Virus genome (UHGV): UHGV-0080089
DNA: 15,374 nucleotides
Direction: 5' to 3' (one strand)
DNA from: a virus
A model generated the notes under the pieces. It searched no databases, was not told where the DNA came from, and was given only the letters and a program-made list of their open reading frames with translations. Below, piece after piece: positions 1 to 11,721 of the stretch. Numbering within the stretch: position 1 is the first letter of the stretch; every line of letters begins with the position of its first letter. A program made the translations under genes and the position numbers.

Positions 1-957
1 ACGAAATATCAGCTCCAGCTGGGAGCCATACTTCTCTTCAAATGCCACGGTATCCGCATGCAGCTCGTCGTGATGCTTTCTGCACAAAGGCAACACAAAG
101 AGGTCATGCGCTTTTGTACCCATTCCGCCCTGACCGTGACCTGTCAGGTGGTGGGGATCATCAGCAGGTTTTCCACAACATGCGCACGGCTGCGTCTTAA
201 CCCATCGCGTGTACTTTTCATTAACCCAGCGGCGACGTTTGGGGCGTAACATAAAAGACTCCGGCGACTCCGGATCCACTTTCAGCGCCAGCACCTTTTT
301 CGCTTTATCCTGGATGATGCTGGTGGCAGGAACCGAAGGCACAAGGTCACTTTCCCGGGTAACAGACGGCACAACAGGCTTCGGTAATCTCAGTGCCTTA
401 CGGGCTGCACTTTCCGGTAAGGCATCCGCCAGGTCATTACGAATCAGCCACCAGCACAGTTCCGGCATTGTCACAACGTGACTGTCATCAAAACCGAGAT
501 CCCGACGCACGACAGATAACACCCACCGGGCACAGTTATCCGTTGCCATTGATTCCAGCCGTTCCGTGAACTGATCGCGCAGTTGGTTATCACAGTGCCA
601 GCACAGACGGATTGCGCCCGGCGCGTGTCGCATTGTGGTCATATTCTCGCTGTGCCAGCCGGAATGAGGCCACTGGCAGCCTGTTTCACGAAGTAACCAG
701 CTCTCAAGGCATTCCACGCCCCCCGCCCGACGGATCACAGCCTCATTGCGGAACACGGCCCGAATGGCAGGATCATCCGCCAGCGGTTGTGATGCCGCCG
801 GAACGGCACCACTGGCAAAAGATGAATAACGTTCCGGCTCAGGCTCCAGCAGGACACGCCCCTGCATAAACAGGGGCATCAGCTCTGAACCTGGCCTGAA
901 CAATACGATCCCCATACGCGGGGCAATTTCAGGGGTCAGTAGTGCTCTCACGGTCAC
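1..957 (-). CDS. DUF968-like phage protein with HNH-like Cys/His motif; partial (C-terminus beyond left window edge); start uncertain (GTG 957 or ATG 915)
   Basis: Minus-strand frame is open from 981 down to position 1; absent from the ORF track only because no stop lies in-window. Translation of 252..1 reads MLRPKRRRWVNEKYTRWVKTQPCACCGKPADDPHHLTGHGQGGMGTKAHDLFVLPLCRKHHDELHADTVAFEEKYG (CxxC...HH...C..HH). Starts directly after the KilA-N gene stop (961..959). No convincing SD for any candidate start. Confidence 0.6.
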   Translation of the reverse strand, partial: MTVRALLTPEIAPRMGIVLFRPGSELMPLFMQGRVLLEPEPERYSSFASGAVPAASQPLADDPAIRAVFRNEAVIRRAGGVECLESWLLRETGCQWPHSGWHSENMTTMRHAPGAIRLCWHCDNQLRDQFTERLESMATDNCARWVLSVVRRDLGFDDSHVVTMPELCWWLIRNDLADALPESAARKALRLPKPVVPSVTRESDLVPSVPATSIIQDKAKKVLALKVDPESPESFMLRPKRRRWVNEKYTRWVKTQPCACCGKPADDPHHLTGHGQGGMGTKAHDLFVLPLCRKHHDELHADTVAFEEKYGSQLELIFR

Positions 958-958
958 C

Positions 959-1756
959 TCAATGAACGGTATCGAGCAGCTTTAACAGCTCAGGGAATCG
1001 GGATTCGAAGAAATGCGGCTGCGTCTCGCGCGGATTTGCAGGACTGGTGATGTTCTTGCCGAACATGCAGCCTTTCGCCGTCAGCGACCAGAATTTTTTG
1101 ATGTTGTTAATCGCGGTACGGCTGTATCGTTCGCGCTGCTCGACGATCCCCAGCTTCACCATCTGGTGATATGCCTGATTAGCTGTCAGGCGGATACCAT
1201 ACTGCTTCAGCAGTGCACTCAGTGACAGCGTGGGGCGGCTTGAGCCATCAGGCGCGTCAGCAGGAGCATCAATGGCATAGCGCGGTGCCAGATTCGGTAA
1301 GCCAACAGCCTCCTGGAGTTTCTGACAGGCACCAAGCACTGAAGAGTTAGACAGGTTTAATTCCCGGCGCATAAAGTCCAGCAGAATCACACCAGCCTGC
1401 ATCTTGTCAGCAGCCTGTCCGGATAATTTTTCCGGTGCGCTGGTTACCATGTCGAAAGTACGGATCACCTTCAGATGGAATGACGGGCTGATCCACATTG
1501 CATAGGCATACACCAGTTCTTTGCAGACATACGTCCCCTGGTTATTTCCGCCACGAATAACGTTAACTGACTCTATATTGACCGAGTTGCAAATCTGCAA
1601 CTCGCTTATTAAACGCTCAGTTTGCTCATTGCGGAGCCAGAATGCAGGCTTATGCTTATCCAGAGAACCAGCAGCCCTGTGCAGATCGTTCAGGCTGTAA
1701 CGCCCATAAGCATCACGACGAACTTCAATACCATCAATGACCATCAGATTATTCAT
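959..1756 (-). CDS. KilA-N domain protein (phage antirepressor-like/Bro-N-like)
   Basis: ORF track 959..1789; chosen start ATG 1756 (MNNLMVIDG...) preceded by strong SD (AGAGGAGAAACGAAGT-ATG). N-terminal region MVIDGIEVRRDAYGRYSLNDLHRAAG...YVCKELVYAYAMWISPSFHLKV fits the KilA-N/APSES pattern from memory. Confidence 0.7.
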   Translation of the reverse strand: MNNLMVIDGIEVRRDAYGRYSLNDLHRAAGSLDKHKPAFWLRNEQTERLISELQICNSVNIESVNVIRGGNNQGTYVCKELVYAYAMWISPSFHLKVIRTFDMVTSAPEKLSGQAADKMQAGVILLDFMRRELNLSNSSVLGACQKLQEAVGLPNLAPRYAIDAPADAPDGSSRPTLSLSALLKQYGIRLTANQAYHQMVKLGIVEQRERYSRTAINNIKKFWSLTAKGCMFGKNITSPANPRETQPHFFESRFPELLKLLDTVH

Positions 1757-1775
1757 ACTTCGTTTCTCCTCTTGA

Positions 1776-2165
1776 TCAGGCGGCTGCACCCGCCGTTTTC
1801 TCGTACTTACTGATAGTGATCTCGACCTTCCCTTCCGGGATAACCGGTCCCCACTCCACCAGCATTCTTTTCACCTGACTGTCGTCTTCCCACACCCCCG
1901 CGTGGGTCAGGGCGTCAAACAGCGCCTTGTTATAGTTGTCCAGATCGCGGATCCTGTTATCCGGAGGAAACAACACGATCTCCACTGAAGCAGGTGCCGA
2001 CGTTGGTTTCGGCAGACGACGTAACTGCTCAACTATTGCTGCGCACGCCGCGCTCTGGAATTTTCGCCCCGCCGCGCTTATCAGGCTCTTACCAGCAAAC
2101 GCCCCTTTGTTGGGGTGTCGCCAGTACGTGTTCACGCTGGGCGGAAAAGGCAGGATCAGCTTCAT
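1776..2165 (-). CDS. rusA: RusA-family Holliday junction resolvase
   Basis: 129 aa; LPFPPSVNTYWRH N-terminus and DNRIRDLDNYNKALFDALTHAGVWEDDSQV core match the RusA pattern (LPWPPSNNRYY...RRDLDN..KA.FDALT.AG.W.DD.QV). ATG 2165 overlaps upstream stop (ATGA). Confidence 0.85.
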   Translation of the reverse strand: MKLILPFPPSVNTYWRHPNKGAFAGKSLISAAGRKFQSAACAAIVEQLRRLPKPTSAPASVEIVLFPPDNRIRDLDNYNKALFDALTHAGVWEDDSQVKRMLVEWGPVIPEGKVEITISKYEKTAGAAA

Positions 2166-2488
2166 ACTTTCAGGCCCCTCTCATGTAACCAGTGGGTTGC
2201 ACGCAGCCTTGCGTTTTCCTCACCGGCAAGCAGTGAGCGGATAATCCCGACCGCCTCGCTGTCGTCGTCCTTCACCGCGGTATGAAGCGTGATGCCCCGG
2301 GCCACGCCACGCTTTATCGTGATGACGCCTTTTTTCTCCAGTGCGCGAAGATGCTCCACCGCTGCATTCACTGAACGGTATCCCAGCATGGTTGCCACCT
2401 CCTGATTGGTTGGCGGGAAGCCACGTTCTTTCTGATAAGAAATCAGCATATCCAGCACCTGCTGCTGGCATTGAGTTAACGTCGTCAT
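2162..2488 (-). CDS. LexA N-terminal DNA-binding-domain protein (winged helix only, no S24 peptidase domain)
   Basis: 108 aa; LTQCQQQVLDMLISYQKERGFPPTNQEVATMLGYRSVNAAVEHLRALEKKGVI closely parallels the LexA N-terminus ([53 protein letters not shown]); no Ala-Gly/Ser/Lys protease module follows. ATG 2488; stop overlaps rusA start. Confidence 0.7.
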   Translation of the reverse strand: MTTLTQCQQQVLDMLISYQKERGFPPTNQEVATMLGYRSVNAAVEHLRALEKKGVITIKRGVARGITLHTAVKDDDSEAVGIIRSLLAGEENARLRATHWLHERGLKV

Positions 2489-3138
2489 GCCGCCATCTCC
2501 CTGACCAGTTTTTCTGCCTGCTGGCGAACCTGCGCCAGAAAGGCCTCACCACATGCCTCAAGTTCATCGCGCCCGATGTAGCTGATTGCCGGTCCCTTCC
2601 AGGTCTTGTCGAAAACAGCAATAGCACCAGCGAAGAAAGCGCCTGTCGGCACCTGCTTCTCATCCTTCGGGATAAACCAGGCAGGCAGTTCAAAACCAAT
2701 ACGCCCGCGAATAAAAGCAATATGATCTGCATCTTCCGGCCACCACACTTCGCTGGTGGCAGCTTTGATCAGGAAAACATAGCGCCCGCCTTTATCACGC
2801 ATGGCACTGGCATGCTTCATGATGTAACGCATGCCGGTGATGTATTGCCCCTCATGCTGACTGGCGCGGCTGTATGGGGGATTACCAAAGGCAGCACCTT
2901 TAAGCTCCGCAAGGCGTTCTGACCAGTCATGCGCCAACGCGTTGTCTTCCGCCGTGTAATACGCAGCACATTTGGCGTTATCACCGTCAGTAAACAGATC
3001 CAGAACAAACGGGCCAAACAGAGTGTTAATTCCCCAGAAAATGTTGTCCGGCGTGCGCCACTGATCGCCCACTTCCTTCAGTTCATGGGCTGGTTTGTTC
3101 CGCAGTTCCGCCAGCGCCTGGCAATATTTATTACTCAT
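2485..3138 (-). CDS. Phage N6-adenine DNA methyltransferase (Dam-like, phage_N6A_met type)
   Basis: Catalytic FGNPPY motif and N-terminal WRTPDNIF...NAKC..YYTAED pattern. Start taken as ATG 3138 (MSNKYCQ...), overlapping the upstream TAA (TAATG); the track's longer 3171 start is GTG and overlaps the upstream gene by 33 nt. Confidence 0.8.
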   Translation of the reverse strand: MSNKYCQALAELRNKPAHELKEVGDQWRTPDNIFWGINTLFGPFVLDLFTDGDNAKCAAYYTAEDNALAHDWSERLAELKGAAFGNPPYSRASQHEGQYITGMRYIMKHASAMRDKGGRYVFLIKAATSEVWWPEDADHIAFIRGRIGFELPAWFIPKDEKQVPTGAFFAGAIAVFDKTWKGPAISYIGRDELEACGEAFLAQVRQQAEKLVREMAA

Positions 3139-3626
3139 TAAGCCCCCACGTAATTCCCTGAGAGATACCACTCTTCACCTGATGCAGCCCGCTTACTGCT
3201 TTTCCGTAAACACCGTTCACGACGTGCCAGAAAATTGTTTCGTTCTGGCTGGGAGTGGCTTTCACGGAATGCCGCCATCCACACCGTTGCAGCACGACGG
3301 TATAAGCCCCTGGACTCCAGTTCTTCCGCCTGGCGGGTCAGGCACAAAATCACCCGCGGGTCGTTAGTGCCGACATAGAAATTGCGCACAGGTCTGGTTT
3401 CACGAACTGGTTGTGGTTCCGGATCCTGCGCTCTCTCAGTCAGGCGCGGGAAATGTCTGTGTGTATCTCCTTCACAACGGTGAGCCACACGCCCACTCTG
3501 ACGTAACTTGCTTGCTGACTGCAGAACGCGCTGCCGTGAGTAACCTGCAAAAGCATCCGCAATGTCTCCGGAAGTACAGCCCGGATGGGCTTCAATGAAT
3601 TTCTGAACGTCATTCAAAAGACTCAT
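3138..3626 (-). CDS. Hypothetical phage protein, YfdN-like (~162 aa), putative N-terminal winged-helix
   Basis: ORF track 3138..3632 (GTG); preferred start ATG 3626 with SD GGGGGTG 6 nt upstream, 2 nt after the replication gene stop. Size and position (between replication gene and methyltransferase) match yfdN of CPS-53 as recalled. Confidence 0.6.
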   Translation of the reverse strand: MSLLNDVQKFIEAHPGCTSGDIADAFAGYSRQRVLQSASKLRQSGRVAHRCEGDTHRHFPRLTERAQDPEPQPVRETRPVRNFYVGTNDPRVILCLTRQAEELESRGLYRRAATVWMAAFRESHSQPERNNFLARRERCLRKSSKRAASGEEWYLSGNYVGA

Positions 3627-3628
3627 GC

Positions 3629-4570
3629 TCACCCCCTGAATCCTGCCGGGATCTGGCTGTAGTCCACATTGTCGTAACTGGCTTTGAAGTACGGGTCTTC
3701 GCGTTTTTCTGTGTACGTGCTGACGGACGGCGATAAGCGCAGGGAAAGCTCATCCCATTTTTCCCGCAGCTTCGACGGGCTGAGCACGTTACGGCACCAG
3801 AACGGATCGCGGCTGACGCGGCTGTACATCTCGCAGATTTGTTTGTGAGTACGACCATCCTGCACACACATCAGGCGAATTTCGTTTGCCCAGGCTGTCC
3901 AGTTCGGTTCTTTGGGACGAACCACCTCGCCGTCACATTCGGCAGCCTGCTCGTACAGGGCGATGATTTTTTTCCAGAGCCACTGTGCGCAGGTCAAATC
4001 ATCCTGCGTCCCCCACTGGCGCTTTTTAGGGCTGAATACAACCGCATCAGGATGGCGAGTTAAAAAATCCTGTTCAGCCGTCTGCGTGTCCGGTTGCGAA
4101 GCGTCCGGACGAGAAGGTTTTTTATCTGACGGATCATGTTTTGATTTTACTGACGGATCCCCGCCAGATTCTGACGGGTGAAAACCCGCTTTTTTGCCAG
4201 ATTTCGACGCATCAAATTTTGACGGGTCAGATTTTGATGCGTCAGATTTTGACGGGTCAGAATCTGACAGTTGAGAAAATGCCGCTGCCTGAAGCTTCGC
4301 AACGTTAAGCTGATAAACATTCGACGCATTGCGGTTACCCTGGCGACGCGCCTTACGCGTTAACCAGCCTTCTGCTTCCAGCCGTGCGATAGCCGTTCTG
4401 ACGGTACTCATCCCCGCGCCAATCTGACGGGCAATGGTTTCAATTGATGGCCAGCACACACCTTCGTCATTACTGAAATCAGCCAGGCGGGCCATAATTG
4501 CCACGCTGGATAACTTCATGCCTGATGCAGCGCAACCATCCCATACATAGCCGGTTAATTTAGTGCTCAT
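3629..4570 (-). CDS. Phage replication initiation protein (lambda O-like architecture: N-terminal HTH, internal iteron-encoded linker, C-terminal domain)
   Basis: 313 aa; ATG 4570 with SD AGAGGT; N-terminal wHTH (SVAIMARLADFSNDEGVCWPSIETIARQIGAGMSTVRTAIARLEAEGWL); central peptide repeats SDPSKSDASKSDPSKFDASKS encoded by 15-bp DNA direct repeats. Confidence 0.7.
   Translation of the reverse strand: MSTKLTGYVWDGCAASGMKLSSVAIMARLADFSNDEGVCWPSIETIARQIGAGMSTVRTAIARLEAEGWLTRKARRQGNRNASNVYQLNVAKLQAAAFSQLSDSDPSKSDASKSDPSKFDASKSGKKAGFHPSESGGDPSVKSKHDPSDKKPSRPDASQPDTQTAEQDFLTRHPDAVVFSPKKRQWGTQDDLTCAQWLWKKIIALYEQAAECDGEVVRPKEPNWTAWANEIRLMCVQDGRTHKQICEMYSRVSRDPFWCRNVLSPSKLREKWDELSLRLSPSVSTYTEKREDPYFKASYDNVDYSQIPAGFRG
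4122..4273. repeat. Iteron-like direct repeats (~15-bp units AGATTTTGACGGGTC / AGATTTTGATGCGTC) inside the replication gene; candidate replication origin
   Basis: Four contiguous 15-bp units at 4214..4273 (aaattttgacgggtc, agattttgatgcgtc, agattttgacgggtc, agaatctgacagttg) plus spaced copies at 4165..4180 and 4198..4213 and TGACGG cores at 4127 and 4152. Confidence 0.6.
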
Positions 4571-4918
4571 GACCGACCTCTATTTCCCTGAATTTACGAC
4601 GAAACTGTTCGAGCGGACTGAAGCATTCATGCTCATAACCTTCGCGGAGGTAGATAACCCGTTGTGTTTCCGGCTCCCAACGAATGACTCTGACGGGCAC
4701 TCCGTAGTGATCTTTGAACCAGCGGTTAACTTGTCGCAAAGGACTGTCTCCTTCTGCCGGTTGAAATCACCCACAGCCCACTCTGCAAAGCTGTGGGTTA
4801 CAATTTCCCTGTCACCTGGTACATTCACTGCATAGCAATATTCCACCTTCGCTTTTCCACCCGGAACAGGAAGCGCAATCAGTTGCGAGCGACGGTAGTG
4901 TGTTGTTAAACTGTTCAT
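4563..4918 (-). pseudogene. Frameshift-disrupted small phage gene (~115 aa if restored) between the cII-position gene and the replication gene
   Basis: Track ORF 4580..4918 starts protein-like ([55 protein letters not shown]) then turns into low-complexity sequence; a second frame open from 4766 to stop 4562..4560 reads [65 protein letters not shown] with no ATG. Frame switch lies within ~4750..4770, next to an 8-bp-stem hairpin at 4771..4798. Confidence 0.4.
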
Positions 4919-5523
4919 GCGTTAGTTTCTCCACAGTCACGACACGCTACGGCGCCCGGAGCTGCACACTCGCGGGCGTCATTACTTTCTGAAATGCAAA
5001 AAATTTTGTAGACCAGTGCTGCATGCTCCTGCAGCTTCGAAATTGAGAGGTAGAGCTCGTCATTAATTGCTGTCTTCTCATGCGGTTCCACTACACCGTC
5101 TTCGATTGCTGAACGAATCTGTTTTGAATAACTGCCGATCTGTTCAATGACTTCCAGCAGACGCTGGTTAATATCGGCGTTGTCCACATCCTCGACGTCA
5201 GGAAGAGACACAAAGACGCCATTTGCAGACTGCGCCACAGCATCAGCAATGAAGTGAGTTCCACCAGCACGTTGCAAAATCATTGCCCATCCCAGCGGGA
5301 AAATCTGATCGCCATCGGCACGAAGGCGGTTAAATAATGCGTTCTCTGTTACATCCAGCCAGTCAGCAGCTTCAGCGTAACCCCCCGGCAACGCTGCGAT
5401 AGTTTTTCTGACAGCTTTCACGTACCACTCAGGCTGTTTGTCTACTTTCCAGTGATGCTTACCCACGGTTAGCCTCATCGTTCTGTGGTTTCTGTTAATC
5501 GATTTATCCATTAGATTTTTCAT
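4915..5523 (-). CDS. Early regulatory protein in the cII position (possibly YdaT-like); C-terminal Cys cluster
   Basis: Track ORF 4915..5580 begins at GTG; first ATG at 5523 (MKNLMDK...) chosen, alternative ATG 5511 overlaps the cro-like stop. Weak SD for both. C-terminus [13 protein letters not shown]. Family assignment is by position after the YdaS-like gene, not sequence. Confidence 0.55.
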
Positions 5524-5704
5524 AAAGCTCAGGTTTAAATGGCAACCGTCCGCAAGTTCTATATGCAGCTTCTGCTGCACGTCCTTTTGGAATTAACTGG
5601 CCCGGACGGTTTCGCCACTGATAAACGGCTTCAGTTGTTATGCCGAAAAAAGCAGCAACTTTCTCAATACTGCCGAAGTAGCTTTCGATATCGTCAGTTG
5701 TCAT
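5504..5704 (-). CDS. Cro-like / YdaS-family HTH regulator
   Basis: 66 aa; ATG 5704 with strong SD (GGAGGG 6 nt upstream); HTH region VAAFFGITTEAVYQWRNRPGQLIPKGRAAEAAYRTCG; divergent from cI across a 97-bp operator region. Confidence 0.75.
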   Translation of the reverse strand: MTTDDIESYFGSIEKVAAFFGITTEAVYQWRNRPGQLIPKGRAAEAAYRTCGRLPFKPELYEKSNG

Positions 5705-5801
5705 ACGCCCTCCAAACTAAGTTTTATTAGATGCTAATTACAAATCTATCTTTGGTCAATAAAAACTAAGATTACTTAGTAATTAAAGAAATGGTGCTCC
5801 T
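5705..5801. promoter_or_regulatory. Immunity-region divergent promoter/operator region (OR-like)
   Basis: Perfect 16-bp palindrome ACTAAGattaCTTAGT at 5765..5780; related imperfect site ACTAAGttttATTAGa at 5716..5731. Minus-strand promoter candidate for the cro-like gene: -35 TTGACC (5759..5754), 17-bp spacer, -10 TAGCAT (5736..5731). Confidence 0.6.
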
Positions 5802-6428
5802 ATGGAAACGGTTGGTCAGCGTATAAAAGCTCTGAGAAGAGTTACCAGAACGTCCCAGAAAGAATTGGGTAAATTTTGTGGAGTAAGCGACGTTGCTGTG
5901 GGGTACTGGGAGAAAGACATCAATACCCCTGGTGGGGAGGCACTTTCGAAATTAGCGAAGTTCTTCAATACGTCAATAGATTACATTCTTTATGGTGCTG
6001 AGTTTGAAGGCAAACTCGTCACAAACATGCGCAGAGTTCCTGTAATATCGTGGGTTCAGGCTGGGCAGTTTACTGAGTGCAGGGCAGCAGAAGTGTTTAG
6101 TGAAGTGGACAAGTGGGTAGATACATCATTAAAGATTGGTGATAACTCATTTGCATTAGAGGTTAAAGGTGACTCCATGACTAACCCTAATGGCCTCCCA
6201 ACAATACCAGAAGGCGCAACAGTGATTGTAGATCCAGATGCAGAACCTCGTCATGGAAAAATAGTCATCGCTCGACTTGATGGAACAAACGAAGCTACAG
6301 TAAAAAAATTAGTCATCGATGGCCCTCAAAAGTTTTTAGTGCCATTAAATCCTCGGTATCCCAACATCCCTATCAATGGTAATTGCCTTATCATTGGTGT
6401 AGTCAAAGGAGTTCAATACGAACTCTAA
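5802..6428 (+). CDS. cI: CI-type prophage repressor (HTH_XRE + S24 LexA-like peptidase domain)
   Basis: 208 aa; N-terminal HTH (QKELGKFCGVSDVAVGYWEKD); Ala-Gly in VISWVQAGQF; Ser nucleophile in GDSM and Lys in VKKLV with S24 spacing. Confidence 0.9.
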   Translation: METVGQRIKALRRVTRTSQKELGKFCGVSDVAVGYWEKDINTPGGEALSKLAKFFNTSIDYILYGAEFEGKLVTNMRRVPVISWVQAGQFTECRAAEVFSEVDKWVDTSLKIGDNSFALEVKGDSMTNPNGLPTIPEGATVIVDPDAEPRHGKIVIARLDGTNEATVKKLVIDGPQKFLVPLNPRYPNIPINGNCLIIGVVKGVQYEL

Positions 6429-6439
6429 GACCTCTCTTC

Positions 6440-6510
6440 TCTAACTAAGGCACCGAACTAAGAAAAGTTTGGTGTTTTCTCTTGCCATAATAACTAAGTT
6501 AAGTTAGATT
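6440..6510 (+). promoter_or_regulatory. Second operator cluster downstream of cI (OL-like) with candidate plus-strand promoter
   Basis: ACTAAG half-site motifs at 6444..6449, 6457..6462 and 6493..6498; promoter-like -35 TTGCCA (6482..6487), 17-bp spacer, -10 TAGATT (6505..6510). Confidence 0.4.
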
Positions 6511-6675
6511 TTATGTCAAAGATAACGAACAGGCAGGACGCCCACGAAGTAGCCGCCTGGGGCATATGAAGTCCAGGATGATTCGTTAGCAACAAAAAAG
6601 CGCCCTACAGGACGCTTAGCTCTTTAACAATCTGGTCCCCATCAACAAGTAACTGATAACTTGAGGAGATGTGAA

Positions 6676-6882
6676 ATGCACAAAACAGAACCCAAAATCG
6701 TCGCGCCTGGCTACACAGATGAGGAAATTTATGAGTGGATGACAAAGAAGCTGGCAGCTATAAACCAGCTTCGTGAAGTGCTGTCTTATCGACAGGAAAC
6801 AATAGACTCCTTAAAAAAACTGGATCAGGAAATCACGGTTTTATCACAGGATGTTACTTTAGATATTGTGCAGACAAATTAG
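6676..6882 (+). CDS. Hypothetical small protein (68 aa), AT-rich accessory gene downstream of cI
   Basis: ATG 6676 preceded by GAGGAG (6663..6668) at 7-nt spacing; track ORF begins at TTG 6661. No recognisable motif and not arginine-rich; 3' end overlaps the convergent 144-aa gene by 29 bp. Confidence 0.55.
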   Translation: MHKTEPKIVAPGYTDEEIYEWMTKKLAAINQLREVLSYRQETIDSLKKLDQEITVLSQDVTLDIVQTN

Positions 6883-7288
6883 GATCCCATTCATTTTCGT
6901 CAAAATCATCAAAGTGATGAATTTGTGATCTCCAGTCTCGATAATCTAAAAATTTCTGGGCGGTTACGCTTATTTTATCAAGTGTGAGTTCATCCTGAAT
7001 TGAAAGAAGAAGTTCATCAAATTTCATCTCATTAATCTGTTTTGGCATCCAGTGATGCTTCATCAGAATAAGGTGAACCAGAGCCTTTTTCCCATTCAAC
7101 TGATTATAGGGAGTGCCGAATTTCTTCCGGTGCTCATGTAAGACAAGGTCCAAAAGAGTAAGTAATGTTGCCCTTGATTCAACTTTGCTTATTTCGACTG
7201 ATGACACTACCCCACTGATTTCAATGCCCCGATACTTTCCAACATTTTCACAGTGGGATTTGTACAGCGTATAGATATTACCGGACAT
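6854..7288 (-). CDS. Hypothetical protein (144 aa), AT-rich accessory gene convergent with the 68-aa gene
   Basis: ATG 7288 with AAAGGAAAAGAA upstream; about 35% GC versus about 52% in flanking phage genes; acidic C-terminus (HHFDDFDENEWDP); no family recognised. Confidence 0.6.
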   Translation of the reverse strand: MSGNIYTLYKSHCENVGKYRGIEISGVVSSVEISKVESRATLLTLLDLVLHEHRKKFGTPYNQLNGKKALVHLILMKHHWMPKQINEMKFDELLLSIQDELTLDKISVTAQKFLDYRDWRSQIHHFDDFDENEWDPNLSAQYLK

Positions 7289-7303
7289 TTCTTTTCCTTT
7301 TGC

Positions 7304-7352
7304 GTTGTTGGGGATAACCAGATTAACCGAATCCTTGTTGTTGGGGAATAAC
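7304..7352. repeat. Tandem imperfect direct repeat (GTTGTTGGGGATAAC at 7304..7318 and GTTGTTGGGGAATAAC at 7337..7352, ~33-bp period) just upstream of the 144-aa gene
   Basis: Read directly from the sequence; on the minus strand each copy ends in an AAGGA-like element, the second forming the RBS of the 144-aa gene. Confidence 0.5.
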
Positions 7353-7574
7353 TAGGTCCACCTCGCCTGATGTGGCTAAAAGCAGGCACATAACAGCTAA
7401 GTATTTTCAACCAGAGAGAATCCTTAGCGTTGTGGTGAATGCGGCTCAGCGCACGCGGGTTAAGGTTGAGGCTGACAGTCGACCTTCTGTGGATACCCAC
7501 CCGCCTGGTGTGCAACCTTCGCCAGGCACCGGGAGGCACCCGGCACCACAACTTTATGCTGTGTGTAGTCTTGG

Positions 7575-7619
7575 CGGTACCAGCTTGTACCCTTGCTTCC
7601 GGCTGGTACCGTCCTTTTT
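7575..7619 (+). terminator. Candidate intrinsic terminator / attenuator hairpin upstream of the yfdP-like operon
   Basis: 10-bp perfect stem CGGTACCAGC (7575..7584) / GCTGGTACCG (7602..7611), 17-nt loop, then TCC + TTTTT (7615..7619). The loop is long for a canonical terminator. Confidence 0.4.
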
Positions 7620-7756
7620 ACAAAACAGAGAAGAGCATCACCGGACGACGGGCTCATAACCCAATCCATCCGGGCGGCAGTCACCGCAGGTGTTCTTCTC
7701 TGTTTTGTGGAGAAACTAACCGACCTTGCAGGGTCGATATGATGAGGAGCAGCAAA

Positions 7757-8119
7757 ATGGCTAGCGAACGCAGTACTGATGTGCAGGCATTTATCGGGGA
7801 GCTGGACGGCGGCGTATTTGAAACCAAAATCGGCGCAGTTCTCAGTGAAGTCGCTTCCGGTGTGATGAACACGAAAACCAAAGGTAAGGTCTCGCTCAAC
7901 CTGGAAATCGAACCGTTTGATGAGAACCGAGTGAAAATCAAACACAAACTCTCATATGTTCGCCCGACTAACCGCGGGAAAATTTCCGAAGAAGACACCA
8001 CCGAAACGCCGATGTATGTCAATCGCGGTGGTCGCCTGACTATTCTGCAGGAAGACCAGGGACAGTTACTGACTCTTGCCGGTGAACCTGACGGAAAACT
8101 CCGCGCAGCAGGTCGTTAA
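7757..8119 (+). CDS. YfdP-like early-left phage protein (120 aa), function unknown
   Basis: Track ORF 7439..8119 is a long GTG-initiated extension; chosen start ATG 7757 (MASERSTDVQ...) has GAGGAG (7744..7749) at 7-nt spacing. Size and position before the YfdQ-like gene match CPS-53 yfdP. Confidence 0.65.
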   Translation: MASERSTDVQAFIGELDGGVFETKIGAVLSEVASGVMNTKTKGKVSLNLEIEPFDENRVKIKHKLSYVRPTNRGKISEEDTTETPMYVNRGGRLTILQEDQGQLLTLAGEPDGKLRAAGR

Positions 8120-8184
8120 TATCGTTTTTAATTAACTGATTATTTATCTCATCACTGAATATCTTTATATAGTGAGGACTTATT

Positions 8185-9009
8185 ATGTCTCAGAACTTAG
8201 ACGCAACCGCAATTAATCAAATCCATGCCCTTATTTCTGCTCAGGGTGTTAATGAAATTATCAGTAAGATTGGTGCCGATGCTGTGGCATTGCCTGAGAA
8301 TTTCCGCATTCATGATCTGGAAAAATTTAATTTAAATCGCTTCCGTTTCCGTGGTGCGCTTTCCACTGCCAGCATCGATGACTTTACCCGTTATTCTAAA
8401 GATCTTGCAGATGAAGGCACCCGCTGCTTTATCGATGCTGATAATATGCGTGCCGTCAGTGTGCTTAACCTGGGTACTATTGATGAACCAGGTCACGCAG
8501 ATAACACCGCCACACTCAAACTGAAAAAGACAGCACCGTTCTCTGCTCTGTTGTCTGTTAACGGCGAGCGTAACTCCCAGAAGTCACTAGCAGAATGGAT
8601 TGAAGACTGGGCCGACTATCTTGTGGGCTTTGATGCTAATGGTGACGCTATTCAGGCAACAAAAGCGGCTGCGGCTGTCCGTAAAATCACGATTGAAGCA
8701 AACCAGACCGCTGATTTTGAAGATAATGACTTCAGCGGCAAACGCTCCCTGATGGAGTCTGTCGAAGCGAAGACCAAAGACATTATGCCAGTGGCATTTG
8801 AATTTAAATGCGTTCCGTTTGAAGGTCTGAAAGAACGTCCGTTTAAATTACGCCTCAGTATTATCACTGGCGATCGTCCTGTACTGGTTCTGCGCATTAT
8901 TCAGCTGGAGGCGGTGCAGGAAGAAATGGCTAACGAATTTCGTGATCTGCTTGTTGAGAAATTCAAGGACAGCAAAGTAGAAACCTTTATTGGTACTTTC
9001 ACCGCCTGA
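8185..9009 (+). CDS. yfdQ: DUF2303-family protein, YfdQ-like (274 aa)
   Basis: ATG 8185 with SD GAGGA at 6-nt spacing; sequence and length recalled as matching E. coli CPS-53 YfdQ (memory only, not searched). Confidence 0.75.
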
Positions 9010-9021
9010 TTTCATTACTGC

Positions 9022-9043
9022 AAATGCCCCTGCGGGGGCATTT
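9022..9043 (+). terminator. Hairpin downstream of the yfdQ-like gene (possible partial terminator)
   Basis: 9-bp stem AAATGCCCC / GGGGCATTT with 4-nt loop, 13 bp after the stop; T-tract limited to the stem's own 3' TTT. Confidence 0.35.
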
Positions 9044-9136
9044 ATGGAAACGTAATTTACTCAATAATCGCCGGATGGTGAGGGATTCTTTTTGCCAGAA
9101 TTCAGCGCGGTGCAGCGCATATACGTGGAGAACAAA

Positions 9137-9673
9137 ATGTCATTTATTAAAACTTTTTCCGGGAAGCATTTTTATTATGACAGGATAAATAAAGACGACA
9201 TCGATATTAACGATATCGCGGTTTCCCTTTCAAATATCTGTCGCTTTGCCGGTCATCTTTCGCACTTCTACAGCGTCGCCCAACATGCGGTTCTTTGCAG
9301 CCAGCTGGTGCCGCAGGAATTTGCTTTTGAAGCGTTAATGCATGATGCAACAGAAGCGTATTGCCAGGACATTCCCGCACCACTGAAACGCCTTCTTCCT
9401 GACTATAAACAAATGGAAGAAAAAATAGACGCCGTAATCCGTGAGAAATACGGGTTACCCCCAGTTATGAGTACGCCCGTGAAATATGCCGATCTCATCA
9501 TGCTGGCAACCGAACGCCGCGATCTCGGGCTTGATGATGGCTCTTTCTGGCCTGTACTGGAAGGTATCCCGGCAACAGAGATGTTCAACGTGATTCCACT
9601 GGCACCGGGCCATGCCTACGGGATGTTTATGGAACGCTTTAACGAGTTATCGGAGTTACGCAAATGCGCATGA
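9137..9673 (+). CDS. yfdR: HD-domain phosphohydrolase, YfdR-like (178 aa; 5'-deoxynucleotidase family)
   Basis: Chosen start ATG 9137 (MSFIKTF...) with GGAGA SD; HD motif in ALMHDATEAY plus upstream His (FAGHLSHF..QH); length matches YfdR as recalled. Confidence 0.8.
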   Translation: MSFIKTFSGKHFYYDRINKDDIDINDIAVSLSNICRFAGHLSHFYSVAQHAVLCSQLVPQEFAFEALMHDATEAYCQDIPAPLKRLLPDYKQMEEKIDAVIREKYGLPPVMSTPVKYADLIMLATERRDLGLDDGSFWPVLEGIPATEMFNVIPLAPGHAYGMFMERFNELSELRKCA

Positions 9674-10026
9674 ATATTTTCGAAATGGAAGGGTTTCTTC
9701 GTGGGAGATGTGTACCGCGAGATCTGAAAGTAAATGAAACAGATGCTGAATACCTGGTGCGTAAATTCGATGCGCTTGAAGCTAAATGTGCAGCACAGGA
9801 AAACAAAGTAATACCAGTGTCAACTGAACTGCCACCAGCAAATGAAAGTGTTTTGTTATTCGATGCTAACGGAGAAGGCTGGCTAATTGGCTGGCGTTCT
9901 CTCTGGTACACCTGGGGACAAAAAGAAACCGGAGAATGGCAGTGGACATTTCAGGTCGGGGACCTTGAAAACGTCAATATCACTCACTGGGCAGTAATGC
10001 CAAAAGCACCGGAGGCTGGAGCATAA
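9664..10026 (+). CDS. YfdS-like protein (120 aa; DUF551-like), function unknown
   Basis: ATG 9664 with GGAG 8 nt upstream; overlaps the yfdR-like stop; Trp-rich C-terminal half. Confidence 0.6.
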   Translation: MRMNIFEMEGFLRGRCVPRDLKVNETDAEYLVRKFDALEAKCAAQENKVIPVSTELPPANESVLLFDANGEGWLIGWRSLWYTWGQKETGEWQWTFQVGDLENVNITHWAVMPKAPEAGA

Positions 10027-10331
10027 TGACCACTTTTACCGACAAAGAACTGATTAAAGAAATTAAAGAGCGTATCAGCAGCCTTGACGTGCGAGACGAT
10101 ATTGAGCGCCGTGCTTATGAAATCGCACTCCTATCTCTGGAAGTAGAACCAGATGAACGCGAAGCTTATGAATTATTCATGGAAAAGCGTTTCGGTGACT
10201 TAGTAGATCGTCGGAGAGCAAAAAACGGCGATAACGAATACATGGCATGGGATATGACTCTCGGTTGGATCGTCTGGCAGCAACGAGCTGGTATCCATTT
10301 TTCAACAATGTCACAGCAAGAGGTGAAATAA
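10026..10331 (+). CDS. YfdT-like small protein (101 aa), function unknown
   Basis: ATG 10026 overlapping upstream TAA (TAATG), GGAG upstream; size and position match CPS-53 yfdT. Confidence 0.6.
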   Translation: MTTFTDKELIKEIKERISSLDVRDDIERRAYEIALLSLEVEPDEREAYELFMEKRFGDLVDRRRAKNGDNEYMAWDMTLGWIVWQQRAGIHFSTMSQQEVK

Positions 10332-10681
10332 TGGAGCCATACAGCCTCACACTCGATGAGGCCTGTCATTTTCTCAAGATATCCAGACCGACTGCCATTA
10401 ACTGGATACGCACAGGGCGTCTTCAGGCAACACGCAAAGATCCCACTAAGAATAAATCTCCTTACCTCACAACACGACAAGCCTGCATTGCGGCTCTTCA
10501 GTCTCCGCTGCATACTGTCCAGGTGAGCGCGGGTGATGGCATAACAGAGGAAAGAAAATGTCACTCTTCCGCAGAGGTGAAATATGGTACGCCAGTTTCA
10601 CATTGCCGAACGGTAAAAGATTTAAACAGTCTCTTGGAACAAAGGACAAAAGGCAGGCGACAGAACTCCATGACAAGCTAA
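10331..10681 (+). CDS. xis: Excisionase-like HTH protein (Xis/AlpA type, 117 aa); 3' end overlaps int by 124 nt
   Basis: ATG 10331 (TAATG overlap with upstream stop), SD GAGGTG; [29 protein letters not shown]; lies directly upstream of int. C-terminal extent uncertain. Confidence 0.6.
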
Positions 10682-11721
10682 AGGCTGAAGCATGGCGGGT
10701 CAGCAAACTTGGTGAAATACCTGATATAACGTTCGAGGAAGCGTGTGTCAGGTGGCTTGAAGAGAAAGCACATAAAAAATCACTGGACGATGACAAAAGC
10801 CGGATCGGATTCTGGCTTCAACATTTCGCAGGGATGCAACTAAGAGACATCACTGAATCAAAAATTTATTCAGCGATGCAGAAAATGACAAACCGGCGTC
10901 ATGAGGAAAACTGGAAACTCAGGGCAGAAGCATGCAGAAAAAAAGGGAAACCTGTTCCAGAATACACGCCAAAACCAGCGTCCGTTGCAACGAAGGCTAC
11001 GCATCTTTCATTTATAAAGGCCCTGCTAAGAGCCGCAGAGCGTGAATGGAAAATGCTTGATAAGGCACCAATTATTAAAGTGCCTCAACCGAAGAATAAA
11101 CGTATCCGCTGGCTGGAGCCTCATGAAGCACAAAGGCTGATTGATGAATGTCCGGAGCCATTAAAGTCTGTTGTTGAATTTGCACTGGCAACAGGCTTAA
11201 GACGCTCGAACATCATCAACCTTGAATGGCAACAAATAGACATGCAGCGCCGGGTGGCATGGATAAACCCGGAAGAGAGTAAATCAAACCGCGCAATTGG
11301 CGTTGCGCTGAATGATACTGCATGTCGCGTATTGAAAAAACAAATCGGGAATCATCACCGTTGGGTATTTGTTTACAAGGAAAGCTGTACCAAACCAGAC
11401 GGAACGAAAGCGCCAACGGTCAGGAAGATGCGGTATGACGCAAACACAGCCTGGAAAGCGGCGCTGAGACGAGCAGGTATTGATGATTTCAGATTTCACG
11501 ACTTGAGACACACCTGGGCAAGTTGGCTGGTTCAAGCCGGAGTCCCGTTGTCAGTGTTACAGGAAATGGGAGGCTGGGAGTCTATCGAAATGGTTCGTCG
11601 ATATGCTCACCTCGCACCTAATCACCTTACCGAACACGCACGGCAAATAGACTCGATCCTGAACCCATCGGTCCCAAATTTGTCCCAGTCAAAAAATAAG
11701 GAAGGTACTAATGATGTGTAA
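10558..11721 (+). CDS. int: Tyrosine integrase (P22 Int / KplE1 IntS type, 387 aa)
   Basis: ATG 10558 with SD GAGGAA; N-terminus [34 protein letters not shown] typical of this integrase group; catalytic pattern ...LRRS..., HDLRHTWAS, ...RRYAHL; stop 14 bp from the tRNA-Thr 3' fragment. Confidence 0.9.

Follow-up and report, generated by a model that had tools for sequence, protein, structure and literature searches.

The closest described systems to the locus analysed here are P22 immC and the corresponding switch of coliphage 21. The P22 repressor binds 18-bp sites as a dimer that leaves the central 4 bp uncontacted, operator affinity depends on those central bases (PMC4267663), and repressor residue Val33 sits on the TpA step of TTAA (PMC5175364). 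The 15,374-nucleotide stretch of viral DNA examined here (UHGV virus genome UHGV-0080089, hereafter the window) encodes a repressor with helix-turn-helix and S24 domains that matches those of P22 and phage 21 almost equally (47-49% identical over the full length). Judged by sequence comparison, the ACTAAG motifs around its gene are, with a probability of about 0.87, the operators of a P22-immC-type lysis/lysogeny switch of this E. coli prophage, and the immunity type is very probably an ordinary one that had not been described before.

The order of elements is that of P22, with cro, OR and the repressor gene followed by OL/PL directly after the stop codon, and with an opposite-strand gene downstream where P22 has sieB. 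Operators are 18 bp long in both (7 + 4 + 7) with the TAAG...CTTA core in common, and OR aligns ungapped to P22 OR1-OR3, including CTTT(A/G)GTCAA (OR2 and the PR -35) and TAAGAT (OR3 and the PRM -10). OL1 stands in the same register with PL when compared by eye; automatic alignment of OL to P22 OL was uninformative. The two systems differ in the half-site, which is (A)ACTAAG here and A(T/C/G)T(T/A)AAG in P22, with C rather than T at base 3, and in the recognition helix (SDVAVGYWEK versus SNVAISQWER). They also differ in the 20-bp leader with a Shine-Dalgarno sequence found here, the annotated P22 PRM start being 4 nt before the ATG, and in OL, which has only two credible sites against OL1-3 of P22. 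No gene-24/N-like protein follows PL here, and the Cro-like protein is only 30% identical to P22 Cro.

The lambda-like OR/OL layout proposed in a first-pass annotation of this DNA is borne out, with P22 immC as its closest counterpart: a three-part OR, its sites about 24 bp apart, separates the divergent cI and cro genes, and PL has a second set of operators, here a pair of sites. This repressor and lambda cI have homologous C-terminal domains, with an Ala-Gly cleavage site and a Ser/Lys dyad, and the PL transcript begins with a related CAGGACGC sequence. In contrast, the N-terminal domain and the operators are unrelated to those of lambda, whose sites are 17 bp long, and lambda has rexAB between cI and OL. 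Lambda OR3 is also placed differently relative to PRM.

Repressor, operators and promoters

The cI/C2-type repressor gene (5802-6428, plus strand, 208 aa) encodes HTH_3 and Peptidase_S24 domains (S24 E = 9e-28). Its product is 47% identical to P22 C2 over 205 aa, the N-terminal part aligning ungapped, and residues 3-65 match the structures 2r1j and 3jxb, of the P22 C2 N-terminal domain, and 1adr (E about 5e-10). The C-terminal domain matches that of lambda cI (E = 7e-28), whose cleavage site and catalytic residues have aligned counterparts here in Ala87-Gly88, Ser125 and Lys168. The repressor thus carries a LexA-like C-terminal domain predicted to be self-cleaving, for SOS induction. Close relatives of the repressor are found in Salmonella, Citrobacter, Enterobacter, Klebsiella and others. 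The cro-like gene (5504-5704, minus strand, 66 aa; Pfam P22_Cro, E = 4e-11) is the first gene downstream of the predicted PR.

The operator consensus is 18 bp, AACTAAG-N4-CTTAGTT. All five sites described below fit a 7 + 4 + 7 arrangement in which the halves are conserved and the central 4 bp vary among sites and relatives, and CTAAG is present in most strong half-sites and their counterparts in relatives. Scores in bits are from a weight matrix trained solely on OR1 and OR3 sites of other genera, with no OL sites in it.

The three-part OR occupies 5715-5781 between the divergent cro and cI genes, overlapping PR and the candidate PRM -10. The first-pass annotation had seen two sites here. A palindrome at 5765-5780 (ACTAAGATTACTTAGT) has hexamers that are perfect inverted repeats around a central ATTA that is not itself symmetric, and an imperfect copy at 5716-5731 (ACTAAGTTTTATTAGA) has 2 mismatches; both were read correctly, but a third, weak site at 5739-5756 had been overlooked. 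The pair had also been said to overlap a minus-strand promoter. This is so for the imperfect copy, which overlaps the -10 by 2 bp, and not for the perfect site, which lies 5 bp upstream of the -35; the promoter is placed between the two.

OR1 (5715-5732, AACTAAGTTTTATTAGAT, 24.3 bits) is positioned as P22 OR1, and its CTAAG and TTAG columns show little or no variation among 17 relatives. The site takes in the final 2 bp of the PR -10 together with the predicted start near 5724. OR2 (5739-5756, TACAAATCTATCTTTGGT) is a putative weak operator, called by position and by analogy with P22 OR2; alone it scores 3.4 bits, which is chance level. Its centre lies 24 bp from that of OR1 and 25 bp from that of OR3, as for P22 OR2, and better versions occupy the same columns in Rahnella (TACTAATCTTTATTAGGT) and Yersinia (TGCTAAGTTATGTTGAGT), with CTTAGG in mEp460. 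OR2 covers the -35 and spacer of the PR-like promoter detected by promoter scan (5731-5759, minus strand), which has a -35 of TTGACC (5759-5754), a 17-bp spacer and a -10 of TAGCAT (5736-5731). The GGTCAA of this promoter is conserved, its -10 is TAATAT in most relatives, and it is collinear with annotated P22 PR.

OR3 (5764-5781, AACTAAGATTACTTAGTA, 23.1 bits) has perfect half-sites, adjoins the repressor gene and is positioned as P22 OR3. None of the 17 aligned relatives departs from TAAGAT or TTAG, and all but two or three also keep the C in each half-site. The hexamer TAAGAT (5767-5772, plus strand) is a candidate -10 of the repressor maintenance promoter, by analogy with the P22 record, where the PRM -10 is annotated on the same hexamer inside OR3. 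All six of its bases are invariant in the 17 relatives, including two in the spacer, outside the expected repressor contacts; no convincing -35 is present for this proposed promoter. The perfect palindrome thus lies over the repressor's own candidate maintenance promoter and not over PR.

Downstream of cI, three further ACTAAG motifs had been described as a cluster just past the stop codon (6426-6428) that overlaps a plus-strand promoter. The overlap is confirmed, with OL1 filling the spacer and -10 of PL, and the motifs are present at 6444, 6457 and 6493, but only the latter two belong to conserved full sites. OL2 (6456-6473, AACTAAGAAAAGTTTGGT, 13.6 bits) is conserved in relatives, and distant relatives such as Yersinia (GCTAAGTTTTATTAGA) have versions closer to the consensus. 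The gap between the end of OL2 and the PL -35 is 8 bp; for the corresponding P22 site, read from the sequence, it is 7 bp. OL1 (6492-6509, AACTAAGTTAAGTTAGAT) is the best matrix match in the window at 25.0 bits, is nearly identical in enterobacterial relatives, and lies 36 bp from OL2 rather than 24.

The PL-like promoter, also found by promoter scan (6482-6510, plus strand), has a -35 of TTGCCA (6482-6487), a 17-bp spacer and a -10 of TAGATT (6505-6510), with TTGAC(C/A) and TAGATT conserved in relatives. Its register is that of P22 PL, in which the -35 is followed by 4 nt and then by an 18-bp operator ending inside the -10, and it reads into the early-left genes directly after cI. The remaining motif is an isolated AACTAAG half-site (6443-6449, plus strand) with no matching second half. 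Considered as an OL3, it would form a full site sharing 5 bp with OL2; mEp460_4F5 and most relatives lack the motif, which is shifted by 1 bp in LLS and falls outside the top 16 matrix hits, and it is probably not a functional full operator.

In the proposed mechanism, a repressor dimer would sit on each 18-bp site with one helix-turn-helix per outer 7-bp half, leaving the 4 bp in the middle uncontacted. Between them, OR1 and the weak OR2 extend over PR from its start through the -10 and spacer to the -35, so transcription of cro and the early-right genes would be blocked; filling of OR2 is probably cooperative with that of OR1, which is 24 bp away. At PL, the -35 is flanked by OL1 and OL2, OL1 also lying over the -10, and repressor there would block the early-left operon. 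Since OR3 carries the candidate maintenance-promoter -10, repressor bound there would limit repressor synthesis. The Cro-like protein would be expected on the same sites, and for induction RecA would stimulate the repressor to cleave itself at Ala87-Gly88, with Ser125 and Lys168 as the catalytic dyad.

Clustering, conservation and alternative readings

ACTAAG occurs nine times in the window against 4.5 expected, a raw count that is unremarkable, nine being reached in 11 of 200 shuffles. This total, a loose 16-mer pattern (up to 3 mismatches) that is likewise not significantly above expectation, and an intergenic GC content of only 30% would fit motifs that are random repeats in AT-rich promoter DNA with no specific binding function. 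However, six of the nine copies sit within 344 bp flanking cI (binomial P = 1e-8), and none of 20,000 local Markov resamplings attained six copies there. Nor was a similar density found in unrelated AT-rich DNA: among 101 AT-rich 100-bp segments (GC at most 35%), ACTAAG is confined to those at the two clusters. OL1, OR1, OR3 and OL2 rank above everything else in the window by matrix score (next best 8.1 bits; random maxima average 7.3 bits, 95th percentile 12.6), and OL1 comes first with a matrix trained on OR sites only. In phage vB_EcoS-569R4 (37 kb), which carries the same region, the only strong matches are the same four sites, and a word count with no preset motif over repressor-gene flanks in 23 loci ranked CTAAG (25-fold enriched) and ACTAAG (87-fold) at the top. 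Together with the retention of the sites across genera although their flanks diverge, these results leave chance repetition scarcely credible, and we regard it as refuted.

The sites stay in place in twenty relatives from Escherichia to Proteus, which are not independent samples. Repressors 63-90% identical to this one occur in relatives from Enterobacter, Kosakonia, Kluyvera, Serratia, Rahnella, Yersinia, Rouxiella, Providencia and Proteus, in which the flanking DNA has diverged while the recognition helix GVSDVAVGYWEK is kept and the sites have not moved; wherever an SDVAVGYW-type helix is kept, so are the sites. Phage SfIV is 98.5% identical to the window over 3900-5490 and 6524-8200 and has an unrelated cro, cI and operators between, so that 5491-6523 (cro, OR, cI and OL/PL) is an exchangeable immunity cassette, and every clustered ACTAAG operator site falls inside the replaced block. 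The matches of SfV and the PhiR29/PhiR49 phages are likewise confined to the ends of the query.

These comparisons also bear on which protein reads the sites. They could be genuine sites for a CII-like YmfL protein, whose gene adjoins cro, or for a C protein of the C.Csp231I restriction-modification type, the published C-box of which has CTAAG half-sites identical to those here, read by a small XRE-type helix-turn-helix dimer (PMC9638921). The C-box spacer is 5 bp, however, and that of every site here is 4 bp; C-boxes belong to a restriction-modification context, with two boxes in the promoter of the C gene itself and no S24 domain in the protein, and no C protein, endonuclease or restriction gene adjoins this switch. 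The resemblance is one of sequence only, and the sites are not C-boxes. As to YmfL, SfIV keeps a YmfL-like gene at 98.5% identity yet has no ACTAAG sites, so the sites travel with cro and cI and not with YmfL. They track the cI recognition helix in the 20 relatives even where the sequence upstream of the operators differs, and another regulator is therefore very improbable.

Somewhat less improbable, but still unlikely, is a switch with the same sites and a different logic, in which OR3 is the primary high-affinity site (for tight autorepression or a Cro-first order), and OR2 is non-functional, so that two independent sites remain at each of OR and OL and there are no cooperative pairs, as reported for the 933W repressor. 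OR3 stands out as the sole perfect palindrome and the best conserved of the sites, which would be unusual if affinity were set by half-site match alone, and the chance-level score of OR2 and the 36-bp separation of OL1 and OL2 point the same way. Binding of the 933W repressor is reported to be non-cooperative (PMC3317979). Against this, the position of OR2, its 24/25-bp spacing and its CTTTGGTCAA block match P22 OR2, better OR2 sites exist in relatives, and OR1 is as symmetric as OR3 in several of them. About 35 bp also separates the two promoter-proximal sites in the P22 sequence, and because P22 affinity is set largely by central bases (PMC4267663), the order of affinity is not to be read from half-sites. 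A P22-type switch with a three-part OR remains the favoured reading.

Immunity specificity

The first-pass annotation proposed that this operator sequence implies an immunity specificity of its own. Comparison supports this through the half-site, the recognition helix, the conservation and the SfIV exchange; no published binding, footprint, transcript-start or immunity data on this repressor were found in the searchable literature. When that literature was searched for ACTAAG or CTAAG operators of prophages and lambdoid phages, nothing came up apart from primer sequences and the unrelated work on C.Csp231I/RacR, and the mEp460 papers do not cover the immunity region. A distinct immunity specificity is well supported by sequence comparison because the sites persist in the 20 relatives and SfIV exchanges 5491-6523.

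The half-site is CTAAG here and TTAAG in P22, and the recognition helix has Asp30 at its start where P22 has Asn32; the Val and the TpA step are both retained in this repressor/operator pair. A one-base half-site difference from P22 is no proof of heteroimmunity by itself, as P22 OR2 reads ACTAAAG. With C at base 3 matched by Asp30, the phage is predicted to be heteroimmune towards both P22 and phage 21, and we place it in their family as a member with a different predicted operator specificity.

Two sister classes, one P22-like in Photorhabdus/Xenorhabdus and one with ATGTAAG-N4-CTTACAT in Proteus/Morganella, have repressors 41-46% identical to this one and the same OR/OL layout, 4-bp spacer and TAAG core. 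They differ in having T or G at half-site base 3, and His (Asn in P22) or Arg at the residue equivalent to Asp30. Three sister subfamilies thus pair half-site and helix as TTAAG with S(N/H)VAISQW, CTAAG with SDVAVGYW and GTAAG with NRVTVTGW.

PL leader RNA and wider significance

The PL transcript begins with a structured RNA of about 64 nt (6524-6587) that is supported by covariation and common to many immunity groups; this leader is found in the PL transcripts of many other phages, many of which have other operator sequences preceding it. An rrn-type boxA (6619-6630) lies downstream of the leader RNA, and an N-like gene is absent. The structure is predicted from comparative evidence, single-sequence folding giving a different and non-significant structure (z = -0.37). 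Rfam gave no match over the whole window at gathering thresholds, and an E-value search of 6480-6720 gave only chance hits, on a minus-strand terminator. Likeness to the HK022 put RNA is limited to size and position just after PL. Covariance model R1 finds no match in HK022 or HK639, the annotated putL-like RNA of HK639 included; the leader is present once per phage, versus the usual put copies after PL and PR, and has a closing stem and hairpin versus the two long stems of put (PMC9378689). No second copy of the leader RNA or boxA was found on the PR side. A very short ORF within the hairpin loop (MKSRMIR, starting at the ATG at 6566) is not conserved, as many copies have ACG in place of this start codon. 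No tRNA was detected in the window by ARAGORN, and the tRNA-Arg beside int in strain D6 is inapplicable because the window diverges from D6 after 10833.

Two linked wider readings are offered jointly and tentatively: a residue/base code in the C2 family and an RNA-based early antitermination device. The code may pair Asn or His with T, Asp with C and Arg with G at half-site position 3, this locus being of the Asp/C class. Proteus variants with Gly at the Asp30-equivalent residue have ATATAAG at several half-sites, which fits a relaxed reading. Should the leader RNA act by modifying RNA polymerase or by recruiting host Nus factors, an undescribed RNA-based early antitermination device would be under the control of these operators. 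The switch itself will not surprise phage biologists; the leader RNA is the less expected item.

The cassette is common, with 513 of 5,426 complete E. coli genomes carrying at least 80% of the surrounding 1.3-kb query. Knowing the operator sequence would allow prophages to be assigned to this immunity group from sequence alone, and superinfection immunity and cross-repression between co-resident prophages to be predicted. The locus would also supply a new orthogonal repressor/operator pair that is close kin to the structurally solved P22 C2, and comparison of the three sister classes suggests a testable rule for specificity change in C2-type repressors.

Probable operators flanking the repressor gene

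The window derives from an E. coli lambdoid prophage; positions 1-10833 match strain D6 at 98.8%, and positions 1-10017 match phage vB_EcoS-569R4 at 98.2%. The D6 match ends within the integrase gene and no tRNA gene was found in the window; the right-hand part of the window thus differs from the D6 prophage, which adjoins a tRNA-Arg gene. A 1.3-kb immunity-region query was found at ≥80% coverage in 513 of 5,426 complete E. coli genomes. The minus-strand cro-like gene (5504-5704, 66 aa; Pfam P22_Cro) is followed by a YmfL-family CII-like gene and lies 97 bp from the plus-strand repressor gene (5802-6428, 208 aa; HTH_3 and Peptidase_S24). The N-terminal domain of the repressor matches the solved one of P22 C2, its C-terminal domain matches lambda cI, and Ala87-Gly88, Ser125, and Lys168 align with the lambda cI cleavage and catalytic residues. 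The same prophage carries a second "LexA family transcriptional regulator" gene (D6 annotation and ORF list; 108 aa, 2162-2488, minus strand) between adenine methyltransferase and RusA genes.

The first-pass annotation proposed ACTAAG operator clusters on both sides of cI, and the motifs lie where it placed them: ACTAAGATTACTTAGT at 5765-5780, ACTAAGTTTTATTAGA at 5716-5731, and ACTAAG at 6444, 6457, and 6493, directly 3' of the repressor stop codon. Operators were read as 18-bp units (7 + 4 + 7), giving OR1 (5715-5732), OR3 (5764-5781), OL2 (6456-6473), and OL1 (6492-6509). The copies at 6457 and 6493 belong to OL2 and OL1, whereas that at 6444 has no partner half, would overlap OL2 as an operator, is missing in mEp460_4F5 and most relatives, and is treated as a stray half-site. 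A promoter scan placed a PR-like promoter (TTGACC-17-TAGCAT) on the minus strand at 5759-5731 and a PL-like promoter (TTGCCA-17-TAGATT) on the plus strand at 6482-6510. At PR, OR1 overlaps the final 2 bp of the -10 and the predicted start, and OR3, the perfect copy, is upstream of the promoter; at PL, OL1 is within the spacer and -10, and OL2 ends 8 bp before the -35 (7 bp for the upstream OL site in P22). A degenerate site, OR2 (5739-5756; TACAAATCTATCTTTGGT), covers the PR -35 and spacer, with centre-to-centre distances of 24 bp to OR1 and 25 bp to OR3.

ACTAAG occurs nine times in the window versus 4.5 expected, a count unconvincing alone. Their placement decides the matter: six of the nine fall in the 344 bp that flank the repressor gene (P = 1e-8), a number never reached in local Markov resampling of the flanking AT-rich regions. 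The motif was present in 0 other AT-rich 100-bp windows, against the similar density in AT-rich DNA expected of chance repeats. An unbiased count of words across 23 related loci ranked CTAAG (25-fold) and ACTAAG (87-fold) as the most enriched beside the repressor gene. A weight matrix derived solely from OR1 and OR3 in other genera scored OL1 at 25.0, OR1 at 24.3, OR3 at 23.1, and OL2 at 13.6 bits, with all remaining scores in the window ≤8.1 bits (mean of random maxima, 7.3), and these four sites were the sole strong matches in the whole 37-kb genome of vB_EcoS-569R4, which carries the region. Chance repetition is rejected on the word enrichment, matrix scores, genome search, and AT-rich window test. 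The sites also resemble the C-protein box, CTAAG-n5-CTTAG (PMC9638921), but the spacer here is 4 bp and a restriction-modification context is absent, and this reading too is rejected.

Repressor relatives 63-90% identical were found in Enterobacter, Kosakonia, Kluyvera, Serratia, Rahnella, Yersinia, Rouxiella, Providencia, and Proteus. Their recognition helix is near-invariant (GVSDVAVGYWEK), and all those fetched have CTAAG-N4-CTTAG at the OR1 and OR3 positions amid otherwise diverged intergenic DNA; where a promoter follows the repressor gene, the OL2 and OL1 positions are occupied as well. Invariant columns in a 17-sequence OR alignment are TAA and TTAG in OR1 and TAAGAT and TTAG in OR3. 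Five fetched loci (L012, L013, L015, L016, L026; Rouxiella, a Serratia MAG, and a gammaproteobacterial MAG) keep OR1 and OR3, L016 being rearranged, and have a GC-rich hairpin then a T run after the repressor stop codon instead of OL/PL; upstream of the operators, too, their sequence looks different.

Comparison with P22 and the predicted switch

The best characterised repressor relatives are P22 C2 (47% identity) and phage 21 cI (49%). P22 is annotated in the same order as the window, with cro, OR1-3, c2, and, right after the stop codon, OL1-3 and PL. The window's OR aligns without gaps to that of P22, sharing CTTT(G/A)GTCAA (OR2 right half and PR -35) and TAAGAT-ACTTA (OR3), and the OL register is identical (TTGACC-ATTT-AATTAAGAAGTCTTAAAT in P22, TTGCCA-TAAT-AACTAAGTTAAGTTAGAT in the window). 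P22 repressor occupies each 18-bp site as a dimer that leaves the central four base pairs uncontacted (PMC4267663), and its Val33 lies over the TpA step within the TTAA half-site (PMC5175364); both valine (Val31) and TpA step are retained in the window. The P22 record places the PRM -10, TAAGAT, within OR3, and the same hexamer at 5767-5772 of the window is invariant in 17 of 17 relatives. Since this includes two "spacer" bases, a putative second role as the PRM -10 best accounts for the invariance.

In the proposed mechanism, repressor dimers on OR1 and OR2 would keep RNA polymerase off PR, and dimers on OL1 and OL2 would keep it off PL, with PRM limited via OR3, the same sites used by Cro, and induction occurring via RecA-stimulated self-cleavage. 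The sequences, their conservation, and the homologies are observed; we infer the binding, its cooperativity, the affinity order of the sites, and the transcript starts. OR2 alone scores 3.4 bits, chance level for the matrix, and better versions occupy the same columns in relatives (Rahnella TACTAATCTTTATTAGGT, Yersinia TGCTAAGTTATGTTGAGT, phage mEp460 CTTAGG). A variant with OR3 as primary site, a non-functional OR2, and non-cooperative binding, as in 933W, seems improbable.

A structured leader RNA behind PL

Homology to phage SfIV resumes at 6524, a few bases past the predicted PL start, and the predicted PL transcript begins with a structured leader RNA of about 64 nt (6524-6587, plus strand). 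The leader block (AGGCAGGACGCCCACGAAGTAGCC...) is common to at least 120 viral contigs, one copy per phage, and about 90 distinct copies lie directly behind promoters with many different operator sequences or immunity types. Forty non-redundant copies align without gaps, and the alignment supports a closing stem between 6524-6529 and 6582-6587, a hairpin between 6556-6560 and 6573-6577, and a small invariant stem; 90.8% of its cells are paired, and in ten pairs both sides have changed. Covariation scores 0.515 versus 0.130 for shuffled alignments (0 of 500 reach 0.515) and ≤0.107 for slid controls. The closing stem occurs in three wholly different sequences, and RNAalifold predicted the same structure, which single-sequence folding did not recover. 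Invariant single-stranded segments are AGGCAGGACGCCCAC, GUAGC, the loop GGCAUAYGAA, and GGAUGA. The RNA has no Rfam match and is unannotated in SfV, SfII, SfIV, ST64B, ZF40, SPN3UB, mEp237, SEN34, and phiNP; lambda and P22 leaders in the same place have only CAGGACGC in common with it (P22 also GTAGCC). Identity with the HK022/HK639 put RNA was rejected. The RNA may be an antitermination element that acts on polymerase or Nus, or else a stability element or translational operator. Two large Providencia phages of 109-119 kb, vB_PreS_PR1 (at 5200-5250) and PSTCR5, carry a stretch with 84% identity to some 48 nt of the leader, in one of them within an annotated repeat_region.

About 30 nt downstream of the leader is a boxA-like element, GCTCTTTAACAA (6619-6630, plus strand), present once in the window, near-identical to P22 nutL boxA and identical to a 12-mer of the E. 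coli rrnB leader that we take to be rrn boxA. The hairpin before it (6598-6617) is a good intrinsic terminator on the minus strand. No N-like gene follows boxA, the next ORF being phrog_1744 of unknown function, so early-left transcription may rely on Nus factors of the host, with no phage protein involved. The annotated P22 record continues with a leader with nutL and then the opposite-strand gene sieB. Where P22 has sieB, an ECs1072-family gene (6854-7288, minus strand, 144 aa; phrog_5286, unknown function) converges on the PL operon, its 3' end overlapping the 68-aa plus-strand phrog_1744 ORF (6676-6882), with minus-strand terminators at 6772-6747 and 6617-6598. This gene may be lysogen-expressed and antisense to early-left transcription.

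Predicted operator specificity and the exchangeable cassette

The half-site is A(T/C/G)T(T/A)AAG in P22 and AACTAAG in the window, where base 3 is C rather than T, and the recognition helices differ at Asp30/Asn32, Val33/Ile35, Gly34/Ser36, Tyr35/Gln37, and Lys38/Arg40 (window/P22). Two sister subfamilies among the fetched loci pair SHVAISQW with TTAAG-type sites (Photorhabdus/Xenorhabdus) and NRVTVTGW with ATGTA(A/G)G-N4-C(T/C)TACAT sites (Proteus/Morganella), so that Asn or His goes with T at base 3, Asp with C, and Arg with G. Because Asp-cytosine and Arg-guanine are common contacts, the residue at the Asp30 position is a plausible determinant of base 3. In two Proteus repressors of the window's own subfamily (L018, L019), Gly replaces Asp30 (GVSGVAVGYWEK), and the OR1, OR2, and OL1 left half-sites are ATATAAG instead of A(A/T)CTAAG while OR3 keeps CTAAG; this fits the pairing and could be a natural variant bearing on the base-3 reader.

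The window and SfIV (L209) are 98.5% identical over 3900-5490 and 6524-8200, whereas in place of 5491-6523 (cro, OR, cI, and OL/PL) SfIV has an unrelated cro, cI, and repeats of the TGTACC type. The cassette edges are sharp, 14 bp past the cro stop codon on the left and, on the right, exactly where the stem of the leader RNA starts, and all ACTAAG sites fall inside it. YmfL is an unlikely ligand because the YmfL-like gene shared with SfIV does not bring ACTAAG sites along. This exchange is the strongest support for the proposal that the operators confer their own immunity specificity, from which heteroimmunity would be expected. No descriptions of these operators were found in the literature searched, and database records annotate the switch genes only generically. 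Judged by sequence, the operators are a new specificity class, with predicted repressor binding, in a well-known family, a useful rather than surprising addition.
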